Source: a virus. From it: DNA of 64,000 nucleotides. A program made the translations under genes and the position numbers. The stretch is taken from IMG/VR virus record IMGVR_UViG_3300027809_000002; one strand, given 5' to 3'. The notes under the pieces were generated by a model. It did no database searches and was not told the origin of the DNA. It saw only the letters and a list, made by a program, of their open reading frames with translations. This document shows, in pieces, positions 1 through 14,669 of the stretch (position 1 is the stretch's first letter; each line of letters opens with the position of its first letter).

Positions 1-25
1 AAAAATATTTTCAAAATGAAAAATC

Positions 26-37
26 GAACAATTGTTC
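26..37. repeat. perfect 12-bp palindrome GAACAATTGTTC
   Basis: Read directly. It shares the AACAAT/ATTGTT half-site with the palindrome at 1235-1246. Confidence 0.9.
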
Positions 38-240
38 TAATTTAAATATTTAGATTTTCATATATAATTAAATTGTAATATGTAAATATATTAGGATCAT
101 ACCTTGAAAAAATTATGGATGGATCGCGTATTATTTTTATATTGTAATTTAATAATATAGATAATTAGAAACCGGATCATAACGCAAATAATTAATATCA
201 ACCTTAAAATTCATAATATCAAAAATAGAATTAGTTACTG

Positions 241-720
241 TATATAAGCCCTTCTATATAGCGCCTTATATATAAGCCCTCTTATATGTACTTGTATATG
301 CACTTGTTGTATATGTCCTTCTATATGGGTTGTTGTATATGTATGCTTATATATGGCCGTATATATAGCGCCTTGTATAGTATGTATGTGTATAGTGTAT
401 GATGTAATGTATTGTACGCATTGTATAACGTACTGTATTAGCTCATATACAGCGTTTAGATATAGAGTAATACAAATAGGTTACTATATGTAGGATGTAC
501 GTATATAGGCGCGTATGTACTGTTATATATGTTGCTATATATAAGGCTTATCATATGCGGTATATGTACCTATATATCCATACCTACTATATGTACCATG
601 TGTACCATATGTACCATGTTCCCTATATACCATAACCATAACAACCGCGATATATACAGCTGATATATATAGGCTATGGTATGTACTGTATATGTACTAT
701 ATGTAAGCGCGTATATAGTG
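241..720. repeat. degenerate tandem array of roughly 30 units, each starting TATAT(A/G) followed by a 5-10 nt tail containing G/C
   Basis: TATATAAGCCC occurs at 241-251 and 269-279. TATATAGCGCC occurs at 255-265 and 362-372. There are many TATATGTAC(C/T) units. No credible ORF on either strand. Confidence 0.8.
591..639. repeat. 9-bp tandem repeat (A/G)TGTACCAT x3, decaying into GTTCCCTAT / ATACCAT / AACCAT
   Basis: Read directly. It produces the MVHMVHMVH artefact in minus-strand ORF 570..911. Confidence 0.85.
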
Positions 721-1100
721 TAGTAGTATGCGTATGTGTATGTAGTGTAGTGTGAGTGCGTATGCATGTGTGTACAGTGTGTATGTGTATAGTATGTGTG
801 TATGTATAGTAGTAGTGTGTAGTAGTATGCAATGAGTACACAATGCAATAGTGTATGAGTGTACAATGAGATAAGATAACATAGTACATTGATACATTGT
901 AAGGTTATCAATTACCAGTTAATAAGTAACGTGTAATACGTAGGATGTAATATAAAGTGTCTAACAGTACGTATAAGAGTAGTTAGTGTGTAGTAATACA
1001 ATTGCATTAGTATGTAGTGTAGAATGTAATACAGTACAATCTGAGAGGTCAATTAGTAGTATATTGGGTGATTTTTGATAAAACAGTATAGTATAGAGTG
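700..1100 (+). repeat. C-depleted G/T/A low-complexity tract (GTAGT / TATG / TGTG words)
   Basis: I count only 6 C in 721-840. The 14-mer GTGTAGTAGTATGC is repeated at 718-731 and 817-830. Confidence 0.8.
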
Positions 1101-1108
1101 TATTTGAT

Positions 1109-1275
1109 GGAATATTTGAGTGTATTATGTAGTGTGCCATGTGAGTATGTATGTATGCATTGGGGAATTTTGAGTGATGCAGTAAGGGAATTGTGAGCGT
1201 GATACAGTAACGTACAGTCGTCATGTTCCAGTGAATTGTTAACAATCGAGCCGAGTTCATGGGAATTTTCGAGTG
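1109..1275 (+). repeat. four copies of the box GGAAT(T/A)T(T/G)(C)GAG(T/C)G
   Basis: GGAATATTTGAGTG at 1109-1122, GGAATTTTGAGTG at 1164-1176, GGAATTGTGAGCG at 1187-1199, GGAATTTTCGAGTG at 1262-1275. Confidence 0.75.
1235..1246. repeat. perfect 12-bp palindrome ATTGTTAACAAT
   Basis: Read directly. It lies between box copies 3 and 4. Confidence 0.9.
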
Positions 1276-1386
1276 TCTTTCATACAGTAATTTATGCATA
1301 GTACCACGCAATTTCAAGCTGCACAATTACAAAGTAAAAACATTACCGTACATAACTAATGTTACGTTGCATATGTAGAGCCGTAA

Positions 1387-1544
1387 GGGTGGGTGGTTTA
1401 CATTCTGCTATATATACGAACAAATATTCGGCCGCATGACCCCACTTTCTCTCACACGGATAACCTGCATAATCACCTTATAATCTTGCATAATTACATC
1501 CATTTATACAAAGGGGAGGGGGTGGTTTCGACTATATACTCGAC
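1387..1544 (+). repeat. two copies of a composite motif: G-run, then GGTGGTTT, then CTATATA..C(G/TC)GA(A)C
   Basis: Copy 1 is GGGTGGGTGGTTT at 1387-1399 plus CTATATATACGAAC at 1408-1421. Copy 2 is GGGGAGGGGGTGGTTT at 1513-1528 plus CGACTATATACTCGAC at 1529-1544. Confidence 0.7.
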
Positions 1545-1565
1545 AATTCATCGACTGTATCCGAC
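1528..1565 (+). repeat. four (T/C)CGAC boxes spaced 12, 11 and 10 nt apart (iteron-like)
   Basis: TCGAC at 1528, 1540 and 1551; CCGAC at 1561. Looser TCGAC/TCGAA/TCGGA copies continue to about 1748. Confidence 0.6.
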
Positions 1566-1762
1566 TAACTAAATATATAATATGGACGAATTCAGAAACC
1601 GCGATATATCAACGTTTCACTCGACTTTTACTCGTATATACAATCGGATAAGTATAAATCAGTATCAGTCCGAATATAATAATAAGTTTGTACAAATTAT
1701 GTTGCTTATATTTTCCATTACATATATAATCGAATTAATTCAATCGAAAGGGATGATTAACT

Positions 1763-12130: not shown

Positions 12131-12150
12131 GTAATATTGGTTTATAGAAA
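12131..12150 (+). promoter_or_regulatory. conserved 20-mer GTAATATTGGTTTATAGAAA (candidate late promoter)
   Basis: Near-identical copy GTAATACTGTTTTATAGAAA at 14733-14752. Related GTATTAATGTTTTAGAA at 33484-33500. Each lies just upstream of an RBS. Confidence 0.5.
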
Positions 12151-12169
12151 AGTAAGGATGGTGAATAAA

Positions 12170-13033
12170 ATGTCTGAAGTAAAACAGTATTTAACTAAAG
12201 ATGGTCATGTATTCGAAAGTTTAGTTGAGTTAGGTGGAGCTAATCCGAAAGAATATGATTTAAAGTTATTGCAAGCTGCTGAAGCAAGGGTTATTAAAGG
12301 TACTAACAAAACTCTTCGTACAGCTTTAAATAGTTTAGCTGGCTTCAAAAATATGAAGAACGATGGAGTTAAAGTTAAGGAAGTTAAAGATGCTGAATTC
12401 GATGAATACGGATTAAGTGACTCCTTCTATACAGAACAACAAATGGGTACAATTCGTAGAGCTATTGACCGTTACCATGAAGGTTATGATATAGCGACAC
12501 CTTTCCAAGAAAACGGCGTAATACAGCTTGCTAAGTACGAATTAATGATGAACGAACTTGGAGCTAAAATAGCCCAACATCCAACTAAAGATGATATAGC
12601 AAGTTTGAAAATGATTCAGGATTTACATGCAAAACTAAACAACGATATGAAGTTTACAACAAGACAATCTGTTGGTGACGCTAATTCTGAAGATATGTTT
12701 ACAAATGCTGTAGTTGAATATGAGAAGCGATTTAAGGAAGAATACTTTGCATTTGAGCATATTGAAGACCGCGATGCTATGCAAGATATTCTAATTAAGT
12801 TTGCGGATCGTGTAGTTGATTTTATGAAAGAATCTCCTACTTATTATCATTTCAAAAAGAAAATGTCTGATGAATTAGATTTAAAACCAAAAGATTTAGA
12901 TTTAATTGGCCGCTTTACTATTGAAGAATTTTACGACTTCCTTCAAATAAATGCTGACAGAAAGATGATTCAAGAAAAGAATGATTTAACGTTTGATGAT
13001 AGCTTTAAAGATAGAGGTGAGGACAATGAGTAA
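12170..13033 (+). CDS. putative terminase small subunit
   Basis: Assigned by position only, immediately upstream of and overlapping the large terminase. AAGGATGGTG RBS. Confidence 0.35.
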   Translation: MSEVKQYLTKDGHVFESLVELGGANPKEYDLKLLQAAEARVIKGTNKTLRTALNSLAGFKNMKNDGVKVKEVKDAEFDEYGLSDSFYTEQQMGTIRRAIDRYHEGYDIATPFQENGVIQLAKYELMMNELGAKIAQHPTKDDIASLKMIQDLHAKLNNDMKFTTRQSVGDANSEDMFTNAVVEYEKRFKEEYFAFEHIEDRDAMQDILIKFADRVVDFMKESPTYYHFKKKMSDELDLKPKDLDLIGRFTIEEFYDFLQINADRKMIQEKNDLTFDDSFKDRGEDNE

Positions 13034-14669
13034 AGAAGAAGAAATCGGAACTAAACCTATAGGTGGTATTAGTCCGGTGAATAAAAACAGGCGACAATTT
13101 ATTCGTGAAGTACGTCAAGGTGTAAGACGTTCTCAAGTTGACCTTATCGACTTCATTCATTATTACCGTTCACATCCTGTAGAAGCTTGTTACGATATAT
13201 TAGGTATTTCACTTATGCCTTATCAGAAGGAACTATTAAAGAATTCTTGGTGCAAACCGTTCCCTCTTTGGTGTATGAGTCGTGGATCAGGTAAATCTTA
13301 TCTTGCTGCTATTGATATGGCCTTGAACGCTTTATTATTCCCTAATATGCGTATTGGCATTATCGCTCCTTCTTATCGTCAGTCTAAGTTCTTATTCCTG
13401 AAGTTTAAAGAAGAAGTATACAACAAATCGAAACTGCTACGAAAATTTGTTTCCGGTAATTTAAAAGAAGGTAATGAAGAGTGTAAATGTCAATTTTTAA
13501 ATGGTTCATTCATACAGGCGTTACCGCTTGGTGATGGTTCTACGATCCGCGGTCAGCGTTACAATAATATTTACGTGGATGAATATGCTGCTATCGATGA
13601 ACAAATTGTACGACTAGTTGTAGAGCCGATGTTAACCGTTAAACGTGCGTTCGATCCTAACAATCCTGAAAGTTCAGAAGGAAACCGTATCGTTATCTTC
13701 TCTTCTGCATACTACACTTGGAATCATTTCTACGCTGCAACTCAAAGATACTTGAGCCGTGTTAAAGCTGGAAATCCTGATTATTATGTAGCTATTGTTG
13801 ATTATCGTATGCCTTTAAAATATGGATTATACGATGAAAAAGCAATTCAGAAAGCGAAACGAGATAATACAGAAGGTGACTTTATGATGGAGTACGGATC
13901 AGTTTTCCAAAGTGAAAGCGCTGGTTCTTGGATTCCTACAATGTTATTTGACAGACGTATTCGTTGGGCTGAAGAATTAGAACCAAGATTAATGGGAGAA
14001 AAACATAAATCATACGGTTTATATTGTGACTTCTCTATCTCACAAAAAGACTTTGCTGATAATACTACATTCTTGGTTTGTGAACTTGATCCGCTTGGAT
14101 TTAACAAACCTGTAATGATGCGCGCCCAAAAAGGTATGACATTAGAAGAAATACATGCACAAATGCGTAAGTATGACCGTGACTTTAACCTTGACCATAT
14201 TTGGATGGATGGTGAGAAATTAGGATTAGCATTAAAAGGTTACTTGGAAAAATCTTATGATGACCCTGATTCTAAACAAGAACAATTACCGCTGCTTGAT
14301 ATGGAAGGAAATAATCCTGATGTATACGGTAAGAAGATTGTAAAATACTTCAAACATAATCAGGAGAACAACCATAACATGGGACTTGCTGCTAAACGTA
14401 TGATTGAACAAAAACGTATTTATATGCCTGTATTGCAAGATCGTCACGAAGAACCGGATATCGAATTAGCATTCCTTGAGTTAATCGCAATGAAAAAAGA
14501 GATTACGCAAATCAAAGCTGTACCAAGTGGAATGTATTATAAATTCGAACAGGAGAAAAAGTCAGGACTTAAACGTGACCGCTGGACGGTATTCGCTTAT
14601 AGCTGTATGGCATTGGAGCAAAGATTGAATGGAGAAGAGGAAGATGATTTCATTTTCGCGGTTGTATAA
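13026..14669 (+). CDS. terminase large subunit
   Basis: Walker A-like SRGSGKS, Walker B IYVDE, appropriate size, and synteny with the portal gene. Confidence 0.85.
   Translation: MSKEEEIGTKPIGGISPVNKNRRQFIREVRQGVRRSQVDLIDFIHYYRSHPVEACYDILGISLMPYQKELLKNSWCKPFPLWCMSRGSGKSYLAAIDMALNALLFPNMRIGIIAPSYRQSKFLFLKFKEEVYNKSKLLRKFVSGNLKEGNEECKCQFLNGSFIQALPLGDGSTIRGQRYNNIYVDEYAAIDEQIVRLVVEPMLTVKRAFDPNNPESSEGNRIVIFSSAYYTWNHFYAATQRYLSRVKAGNPDYYVAIVDYRMPLKYGLYDEKAIQKAKRDNTEGDFMMEYGSVFQSESAGSWIPTMLFDRRIRWAEELEPRLMGEKHKSYGLYCDFSISQKDFADNTTFLVCELDPLGFNKPVMMRAQKGMTLEEIHAQMRKYDRDFNLDHIWMDGEKLGLALKGYLEKSYDDPDSKQEQLPLLDMEGNNPDVYGKKIVKYFKHNQENNHNMGLAAKRMIEQKRIYMPVLQDRHEEPDIELAFLELIAMKKEITQIKAVPSGMYYKFEQEKKSGLKRDRWTVFAYSCMALEQRLNGEEEDDFIFAVV

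Follow-up and report, generated by a model that had tools for sequence, protein, structure and literature searches.

A repeat mosaic of alternating purines and pyrimidines beside the predicted right genome end of Basilisk-like Bacillus phages

The left edge of the IMG/VR virus record IMGVR_UViG_3300027809_000002, a 64,000-nucleotide stretch of DNA that we call the window and number from its first letter, carries about 0.8 kb of short degenerate repeats rich in TATAT and GTAT words. No other DNA in the window departs as far in composition as this mosaic (positions 241-1060). Homology to the mapped terminal repeat of a related phage predicts that it is gene-free subterminal DNA located directly inside the right-hand end of the phage genome, where a spacer of 158 bp separates it from the direct terminal repeat (DTR). 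We tentatively favor the view, in which our confidence is less than even, that the mosaic acts as an accessory cis-acting platform for the processing of concatemer ends or for packaging.

Arrays of short repeats beside phage terminal repeats have been known in T7 since its genome was sequenced, and the window adds a phage lineage unrelated to T7 that shares this architecture, including a period of about 13 bp. Its distinctive features are its length, its extreme alternation of purines and pyrimidines, and its complete lack of A-tracts. Phages with related terminases have a long mosaic, a short one or none, and this natural series makes the function of such arrays a testable question: They might assist terminase in locating the genome end, in cutting there or in finishing there, or they might be by-products of end replication. 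At a practical level, the region shows where these genomes should be opened.

Position at the genome end

By megablast, the window derives from a siphophage of the Bacillus cereus group that resembles Basilisk and PBC4 and belongs to the Sejongvirinae. The Basilisk-like phages (BLPs) of this subfamily, which make up the genera Yihwangvirus and Basiliskvirus, are siphophages of about 81 kb that infect hosts of the B. cereus group. The nearest database relatives of the window (BSG01, PBC4, BCP6/BCPST and pW4) are about 85-88% identical to it over the region, and Basilisk, Bak1, Bak6 and Bak10 about 75-77%. Our alignment of relatives comprised 12 BLP genomes from both genera, including one IMG/VR contig and three assemblies derived from the SRA, and positions are termed invariant when they are fixed across this alignment.

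The identical 218-bp terminal repeats annotated in Basilisk, which were derived from read-start spikes and a coverage step (Merrill et al. 2016, PMC5000459), align to window positions 1219-1438. Four database records (Bak1, Bak10, Basilisk and BCPST, the last being an independently sequenced Korean isolate) break exactly before GGTCATGTTCC, which is the same left boundary; those of pW4 and BCP6 break at arbitrary points within the repeat. Only one copy of the repeat is present in the window, which continues through it without a break, as a concatemer-like or collapsed assembly would. The boundary sequences of the repeat are conserved between the window and its relatives, and 81% of the positions in 1350-1460, which cover the right part of the repeat and span its right boundary, are invariant. 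Because both the homology to the Basilisk repeat and the break in the BCPST record put the DTR at 1219-1438, the mosaic is predicted to lie just inside the right genome end.

On the concatemer, the order is the last right-arm gene, an A+T-rich spacer, the TATAT/GTAT mosaic, a spacer with GGGAATTTT repeats, the DTR, early promoters and early genes, so that the mosaic occupies the upstream side of the concatemer junction. A preliminary description of this DNA, made from its letters alone, had treated positions 231-1330 as a single element; that interval mixes the mosaic proper (241 to about 1060), a spacer that contains repeats of another family (1061-1218) and, at 1219-1330, the first half of the DTR equivalent.

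Architectural parallel with phage T7

In T7 (NC_001604), nt 175-341 are made up of about 12 units, each combining a CCTAAAG core with a variable tail, repeated with a period of 13.25 bp at a periodogram power of 0.62. This array adjoins the 160-bp terminal repeat on its inside, and a looser array with the same core lies inside the right repeat; the two are reportedly the arrays that Dunn and Studier named SRL and SRR in 1983. As in T7, the repeats of the window are non-coding and, by the predicted position of the DTR, sit directly inside a short, exact direct terminal repeat at the concatemer junction, which is where the processing of ends and packaging begin. The likeness extends to the layout of the part of the mosaic farthest from the DTR, cluster 1 (Table 1), and of this part only: many units in the same orientation, whose short cores are conserved and whose tails vary, recur at about 13.25 bp with near-identical power.

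The spacings between successive cores in cluster 1 (14, 12, 16, 12, 15, 12, 14, 12, 12 and 16 bp) give a periodogram peak at 13.25-13.5 bp with a power of 0.53-0.64, and none of 300 random placements reached the observed power. PBC4 and pW4 agree with the window in this period, which is weaker in the Basilisk group. It had previously been stated that the repeats follow no fixed period, and this is correct for cluster 2, in which the spacing is irregular (P = 0.05), but not for cluster 1, with its period of about 13.3 bp.

In other respects the two systems differ. The core is CCTAAAG in T7 and TATAT(A/G) in the window; the T7 arrays have a purine-pyrimidine alternation of 0.39-0.40, far from the 0.74-0.85 of the mosaic; and the mosaic is 4-5 times longer, with its ordered cluster about 850 bp or more from the repeat. 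The preliminary proposal that these might be repeats of T7 type next to a physical genome end has thus held up with respect to position (the DTR equivalent and the BCPST break) and to the 13-bp array that T7 also has; the packaging role that went with it is conjectural and is weakened by a related phage without a mosaic, as discussed below.

Composition and absence of genes

The compositional signal of the mosaic far exceeds what chance would produce. The first kilobase contains 33 copies of TATAT, whereas a kilobase elsewhere has 1.39 on average and at most 8, and 30 overlapping matches, representing 23 distinct cores, fall in 241-720, in agreement with the roughly 30 units first counted there. 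In 200-bp windows between about 250 and 850, the alternation of purines and pyrimidines reaches 0.74-0.85, which is 7-9 standard deviations over the genome mean (0.474±0.041 in the rest of the window, maximum 0.618), and values of at least 0.65 are confined to the mosaic both in the window and in the whole 80.9-kb genome of pW4. Six of the seven perfectly alternating runs of at least 14 nt in the 64 kb lie in the mosaic region. TA steps make up 18-23% of its dinucleotides versus 9% genome-wide, and TG steps 9-15% versus 6.6%. Despite an A+T content of 65-70%, there is not a single A4 or T4 tract in 241-1060, in which the longest homopolymer is 3 nt; other windows of 820 bp have on average 20.2 such tracts and never fewer than 5. 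The plus strand is also poor in C over 721-1100 (6.7-7.5%), which bears out the earlier remark on a tract of G, T and A. The 9-10-mers that recur in the mosaic are absent from the other 62 kb of the window, and the mosaic is the only dense cluster of repeats in the genome.

We found no sign that this DNA encodes a protein. On the plus strand, each frame of the region contains 24-28 stops. The long minus-strand open reading frames (ORFs) at 570-911 and 961-1326 exist because that strand is so poor in G that only TAA stops are possible, and in many of the 12 related genomes a frameshift or an interruption disrupts them. Database records either leave the mosaic blank or annotate short ORFs over it (Basilisk gp138-gp140, BSG01_009, BCP6_001-003 and BCPST_001). 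Judging from their composition (rich in H, T, Y and C), their place on the G-poor strand and their unconserved frames, these annotations are almost certainly spurious, being compositional artefacts rather than genes. In the literature on Basilisk-like and Slash-like phages we found no mention of the region. That about 1.1 kb here lacks a credible ORF, and that the minus-strand ORFs are products of the repeats, had been recognized at the outset, and across 12 genomes the homologous regions encode no frame-conserved protein.

The region contains no tRNA or tmRNA genes; no Rfam family matches it, the only hits being sub-threshold miRNA matches of 20-26 bits against gathering scores of 75-90; and neither strand folds better than dinucleotide shuffles of itself (z = -0.12 and -0.31). 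As the preliminary description had concluded, this is not a CRISPR array: The units are degenerate and 9-16 bp long, with no repeat-spacer structure. The AGCGG/CCGCT sequences of Chi-type end protection do not occur in the first 2 kb.

These results also bear on the idea that the mosaic is an array of promoters or -10 boxes that titrates a sigma factor or RNA polymerase, or else the source of a non-coding RNA or a small protein. Its TATA-rich cores are superficially similar to -10 boxes, weak promoter-like sites end at position 231, just upstream, and, as noted, several records place short ORFs here. Promoter-like sites are, however, depleted in the region (7 found against 14.3±3.8 expected) and missing altogether from the plus strand between 232 and 1615; moreover, the TATAT(A/G) core does not end in the T that is conserved at the last position of the -10 hexamer. 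With the Rfam, folding, tRNA/tmRNA and reading-frame results counting against an RNA or a protein, we judge the whole group of explanations to be highly improbable, and the decoy function once suggested for the TATA boxes is not supported.

The same compositional extremes allow for a more physical explanation, in which 0.4-0.8 kb of alternating, A-tract-free DNA is selected not for its sequence but for its deformability or for a structural transition induced by supercoiling or force. Such an element might ease tight bending or torsional strain as packaging or ejection starts or ends, or might slow the motor before the terminal cut. It might more generally tune the starting, stalling or finishing of the packaging motor at the DTR, or the way in which the first or last segment of DNA is bent inside the capsid or released. 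The alternation, the excess of TA and TG steps, and the lack of A-tracts and of homopolymers above 3 nt are all in its favor. But the perfectly alternating runs do not exceed 21 nt and are rich in TA, which makes them poor candidates for Z-DNA, and the (TA) runs, at 8 bp or less, are too short for cruciforms; the inverted repeats are imperfect, and long runs of (TA)n, or of the Z-prone (CG)n or (TG)n, do not occur. We regard a mechanical element as unlikely on these grounds and on those added below. The earlier suggestion of flexible or Z-prone alternating DNA is strongly confirmed as far as the alternation goes, which recurs in Slash-like phages; that such DNA serves as a structural signal is conjecture.

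Internal structure and conservation

Conservation in DNA of so restricted a vocabulary is easily overrated, as the identity expected between dinucleotide-shuffled sequences of this kind is already 0.54-0.68. We therefore calibrated identity to Basilisk against dinucleotide-shuffle nulls and express it as z; raw percent identities, and the result that cores are more conserved than tails, have to be read with this high null identity in mind. By the calibrated measure, most mosaic blocks have z values of 4.6-10.2, compared to 3.0-3.7 in adjacent non-coding DNA, and 45-55% of their positions are invariant, compared to 18-26% in the flanks. The blocks are listed in Table 1.

Table 1. Features of the left part of the window, with conservation of each block (z, identity to Basilisk calibrated against shuffled sequence)
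Feature	Position	Strand	Details
A-tract-rich spacer past the last right-arm gene	1-230		81.5% A+T; A4/T4 tracts 65 per kb; z=3.3, 20% invariant
Three weak sigma-A-like promoter matches	41-68, 136-165, 204-231	+	Promoter scan
Cluster 1	241-380	+	10-11 head-to-tail units, TATAT(A/G) core and variable G/C-containing tail; period ~13.3 bp
GTAT/TGTA-rich linker joining the TATAT clusters	381-484		Strong purine-pyrimidine alternation; 401-540 z=4.6
Cluster 2	485-720	+	13 TATA(T) cores, irregularly spaced; TATGTAC/GTACCAT words in a single orientation; 541-720 z=7.7
Most conserved island of the mosaic	549-599		TATCATATG, then GGTATATGTACCTATATATC, then TATGTACCAT; 12-genome alignment
9-bp tandem repeat	592-619		TGTACCAT(G/A), 3.1 copies; within cluster 2
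Hypervariable G/T/A microsatellite-like tract	721-800		z=0.3, 10% invariant; perfect alternating runs of 15-21 nt
Second conserved island	801-935		C-poor on the + strand; includes TATGTATAGT, TAGTATGCAATGA, ATACATTGTA; z=10.2, 55% invariant
C-poor mosaic tail, moderately conserved	936-1060		z=5.7, 51% invariant, run 1006-1017; C 7.5%
Poorly conserved spacer	1061-1218	+	Same-orientation GGGAATT(T/A)T repeats; z=3.7, 18% invariant
DTR equivalent, single copy	1219-1438		Left edge (G/C)GTCATGTTCC...TGTTAACAA; right edge ...GGCCGCATG, followed by ACCCCAC
Left-end early control region past the DTR	1439-1762	+	54% invariant; first early gene starts at 1763

Within cluster 1, TATATAAGCCC is found at 241 and 269 and TATATAGCGCC at 255 and 362, the two exact recurrences that had been reported, and the 9-bp tandem run noted with them is likewise present. 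Cluster 2 contains seven copies of TATGTAC. Its island at 549-599 consists of three invariant runs (549-557, 559-578 and 590-599, of 9, 20 and 10 nt) that are fixed in all 12 genomes of the two genera, and the middle element, GGTATATGTACCTATATATC, contains the near-palindrome GGTATATGTACC; from this pattern, the island is a candidate protein-binding site. Further invariant runs (801-810, 823-835 and 892-901) mark the second island. The sequence CCGCGATATAT also occurs inside the mosaic, at 645-655.

Other parts of the mosaic change rapidly. The mosaics of relatives differ from one another by indels of whole units (12-13 bp) and of 2-4 bp, and the tract at 721-800, for which Tandem Repeats Finder (TRF) reports periods of 6, 15, 19, 27 and 32, turns over by slippage. 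Substitutions in the mosaic favor transitions over transversions (203:118, against 241:269 in the flanks; p = 7e-6; the genome as a whole has a ratio of 1.16), although this bias is partly an artefact of aligning alternating sequence.

A possible explanation for this pattern, which on balance we find doubtful, is that the mosaic is a self-perpetuating spacer of low complexity and little or no function, in which microsatellites of the (TA)n/(TG)n type are continually renewed by slippage and the fixed islands are small embedded operators or a promoter. Transition mutations would preserve purine-pyrimidine alternation in such a spacer. The unit-sized and short indels are as this model predicts, as are the failure of the 721-800 tract to be conserved beyond its composition, the failure of either strand to fold better than shuffles, and the transition excess, which the decay of alternating repeats would produce. 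What the model does not account for is that most blocks are more conserved than the non-coding DNA next to them, and 1 kb of useless DNA would not be expected to last in a tightly packed phage genome. The preference for substitutions that keep the purine or pyrimidine class is also what selection for a mechanical property would cause, subject to the alignment artefact just mentioned; the fixed islands argue for some sequence-specific recognition in addition.

Distribution among related phages

The mosaic is present in all 12 BLP genomes, including the four that are metagenomic or SRA assemblies, so the comparison with relatives that the preliminary description called for shows a region retained in independent isolates, variable in length across lineages, and without a counterpart on the left-end side of the DTR. 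Beyond the BLPs, it has a counterpart in the Slash-like phages (Slash, Stills and Stahl). Slash and Stills, which infect B. megaterium, have related terminases (66% identity) and read-derived DTRs of 567 and 491 bp, respectively (for Slash, see PMC3861416). Both have about 700 bp of gene-free DNA at the same place, between the last gene and the right DTR, and about 420 bp of it follows the same grammar, with the same vocabulary, an alternation of 0.77-0.84, and no A-tracts at 72-74% A+T. Their DTR-core motifs (GGGGGTACTTTAC...CTCCCCAC) are similar as well. The differences are that their mosaic is about half as long, shows neither the 13-bp period nor the depletion of C, and cannot be aligned with that of the window; that their DTRs measure 491-567 bp rather than about 220 bp; and that the gene beside the mosaic is on the opposite strand. 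Because that neighboring gene lies on the other strand, the element is associated with the genome end rather than with a gene or transcription unit.

One shared word was considered as evidence of homology and rejected. The 13-mer CATTGATACATTG (window 886-898) also occurs in Slash and Stills, but in vocabularies this restricted a common substring of 13 nt arises by chance with P = 0.20-0.55. When AACAT-N(1-4)-CATTGATACATTG was searched for in IMG/VR, 20 of the 23 matches were unrelated contigs.

A third situation is found in 'Microcystis phage MaeS' (MT362618.1). Its terminase is 68% identical to those of these Bacillus phages, and the same DTR-core motifs are found before its early genes, yet there is no alternating tract anywhere in its 80 kb. 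Because MaeS manages without one, the mosaic is not indispensable for this terminase family, and its length varies by lineage, from about 0.8 kb through about 0.42 kb to none. We note in passing that MaeS encodes a spore-cortex lytic transglycosylase of the SleB type. With this enzyme, this terminase and the shared DTR-core motifs, MaeS looks like a Bacillus-type phage, so the assignment to a cyanobacterial host deserves a second look.

This distribution cuts both ways for the explanations introduced above. Variation in length by lineage, the impossibility of aligning BLP with Slash mosaics and the non-significance of their shared 13-mer are all compatible with a spacer of little function. Neutral DNA should, on the other hand, have lost the grammar and the absence of A-tracts, which have been kept at the same position, at 65-74% A+T, across genera whose terminases are only 66% identical. 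For a mechanical element, the fact that Slash and Stills share alternation and A-tract absence but not sequence is a point in favor, and this reading, if true, would explain how the same grammar comes to exist in genera that have no alignable sequence here; the fact that MaeS packages its DNA with a related terminase and no such tract is a point against it.

A possible role in packaging

Considering these results together, we lean, with the reserve stated at the outset, toward a platform that assists in concatemer-end processing or packaging. Under this model, the same-orientation units, the fixed island at 549-599 and the deformable, A-tract-free DNA around them would serve as the substrate that an oligomeric DNA-binding protein, perhaps a small terminase or an architectural protein, coats or wraps. 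The resulting complex would help to position, start or stop the terminase, which cuts at the DTR boundaries some 0.2-1 kb away, and so would assist packaging as it begins or ends there. The GGGAATTTT repeats would serve as proximal recognition elements, and the conserved boundary sequences as the cutting signals. Several findings are consistent with this model: the position of the mosaic at the genome end, its uniqueness, its persistence in all of the BLPs, its constraint above that of the flanks, the T7-like architecture, and the GGGAATTTT family around the cut.

The members of this family, GGGAATT(T/A)T, all have one orientation. Three are in the window, at 1163, 1186 and 1261, and another is found in relatives at alignment position 1067; relative to the left boundary of the DTR, the offsets are -152, -56, -33 and +42, the fourth, the GGGAATTTT at 1261, being inside the repeat. 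In 8 genomes they keep their positions although the sequence around them changes, and GGGAATT occurs only 5 more times on the plus strand in 62 kb. From placement and conservation, these repeats are candidate sites for terminase or for an architectural protein, and together with the near-invariant DNA at the right boundary (1350-1460) they are better candidates for end recognition than the mosaic itself.

The R sites of lambda cosB, the pacL/pacR boxes of SPP1 and the pac hexamers of P1 are clusters of short repeated sites that flank the terminase cut and bind an oligomer of the small terminase, by which the DNA is bent or wrapped. The four GGGAATT(T/A)T repeats around the left DTR boundary are closer to this pattern than the mosaic is. 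Those regions have a handful of sites over about 100-250 bp, and the mosaic has dozens of degenerate units over 0.8 kb. More distant parallels are the DR2 arrays of the herpesvirus 'a' sequence and the subterminal tandem repeats of poxviruses. These arrays lie beside signals for cleavage and packaging or for concatemer resolution, vary in copy number, and have functions that are unclear or dispensable. They resemble the mosaic as arrays of short repeats in such a location, but their sequences are unrelated (in herpesviruses, rich in G+C) and the end structures are different.

For phages T3 and T7, the specificity of packaging has been mapped to within 5% of the termini, and the pausing of RNA polymerase on the right side of the concatemer junction marks the site at which maturation begins (both reviewed in PMC3276506). 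Plasmids need the concatemer junction in order to be packaged (Chung and Hinkle 1990, cited in PMC13236587).

Several considerations weigh against a platform of this kind. MaeS, as described above, dispenses with the mosaic while possessing a related terminase. At 0.8 kb, the element is much larger than characterized pac or cos recognition sites, and its best-ordered cluster is about 850-980 bp from the cut. In T7, arrays with the same core abut the repeat on both sides, whereas here there is an array on the right side only: On the left-end side (1439-1762) there is no TATAT array, the alternation is about 0.55, and only four CGAC units are found. The 13-bp period, weak in the Basilisk group, is absent from Slash and Stills, and the sole motif shared with Slash is non-significant. 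Part of the apparent conservation reflects alignment bias in low-complexity sequence, as shown by the null identities given above. No small terminase was identified in this phage. To our knowledge, the role of T7's own repeat arrays has not been established, so the analogy carries architecture and not mechanism. Our confidence in the platform is limited by MaeS, by how large the element is and how far it lies from the cut, by the failure to identify a small terminase, and by the state of knowledge on T7.

The usual position of a small-terminase gene is directly upstream of the large one. In the window, a 298-aa ORF (12137-13033) lies there and overlaps the large terminase gene (12993-14669). 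It has no relative in Pfam, NCBIfam or the PDB, and its only match is to a PHROG of unknown function.

Replication and partition

Because the mosaic is the sole iteron-like array in the genome and adjoins an A+T-rich block, it could also be a replication origin, with the 82% A+T stretch at 1-230 as the unwinding element and the TATAT units as iterons for an initiator that loads the phage's DnaB-type helicase. Among the proteins encoded by the phage group are a helicase, a primase and a small 'replication initiation protein'; the annotation of pW4 includes no polymerase. No alternative iteron cluster was found near the replication genes or in the strand-switch regions; the divergent region at 62.4-62.6 kb has ordinary promoters only. 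Nevertheless, DnaA boxes are absent even when one mismatch is allowed, the array is not richer in A+T than the genome (its G+C content is 30-37%), and its 13-bp units are shorter than typical iterons of 17-22 bp and out of helical phase. The site is about 19-30 kb away from the replication module, the cumulative GC skew tracks only the orientation of genes, the upstream A+T-rich block is poorly conserved, and MaeS has no array. An origin or DNA-unwinding region, which was among the roles first proposed, gained no positive evidence from any of this, and we consider it quite unlikely.

The annotation of pW4 gives the general layout of these genomes: early genes, tRNAs, terminase, and structural and lysis genes on the plus strand; a minus-strand block for replication and nucleotide metabolism; and a right arm in which many small genes accompany an integrase and a ParM/StbA-like gene. 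Genes for a ParM/StbA-like protein, a tyrosine recombinase and an antirepressor occur in the phage group (pW4 66980-68034 and 68245-69153), a content that suggests a temperate or plasmid-prophage lifestyle. A search of the GTDB genome collection with a neighboring protein returned no prophage copy, and PLSDB contained no plasmid copy.

In a phage that persists as a plasmid prophage, the mosaic might be the centromere, a parC-like iteron array to which the ParM/StbA-type partition system attaches. Type II centromeres typically consist of tandem iterons of 11-13 bp, the announcement of BSG01 described this phage as temperate, and the relatives encode the proteins just named. But the array of pW4 is about 12-13 kb from the partition gene, which has no iterons upstream of it as a type II ParMRC locus would; the Slash-like phages have the mosaic yet are absent among the ParM homologue matches listed; and, as stated, neither a plasmid nor a prophage copy was found. 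We view a centromere as very improbable.

The only other notable tandem repeats of the pW4 genome lie outside the window, in an intergenic gap of the right arm at 72.66-72.78 kb, where 2.4 copies of a 33-bp unit are followed by 2.5 copies of a 14-bp unit.

The left-end control region

Past the DTR, the early control region contains invariant runs at 1517-1531, 1537-1544, 1671-1682, 1694-1706 and 1721-1730. The four CGAC units, spaced at 10-12 bp, occupy 1529-1565 and are followed by the palindrome GAAACCGCGATATATCAACGTTTC at 1595-1618; units and palindrome are probably control DNA of the early genes. A promoter-like sequence, TTGCTT-17 nt-TATAAT, is located at 1702-1730, 33 bp upstream of the first early gene, and both of its hexamers fall in runs that are invariant across the alignment. 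Our consensus promoter scanner missed this site, whose -35 hexamer matches at only 3 of 6 positions.

The box GGGGnGGTGGTTT occurs twice in the 64 kb and nowhere else, once inside the DTR (1387-1399) and once 78 bp beyond it (1516-1528). Both copies resemble strong ribosome-binding sites, with no ORF behind either. The terminal repeats of Slash and Stills contain a similar box (GGGGGGTACTTTTAC), as does MaeS (GGGGGTGTTTTAC), and in each case an element like CTCCCCAC comes next.

Finally, CGAACAAATATTCG at 1417-1430 lies inside the DTR, 8 bp short of the right boundary. It shares bases with the invariant run TATATATACGAACA (1409-1422) and matches the Bacillus LexA (Cheo) box, GAAC-N4-GTTC, at 7 of 8 core positions. 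Going by this match, it could be an SOS-responsive operator at the genome end.

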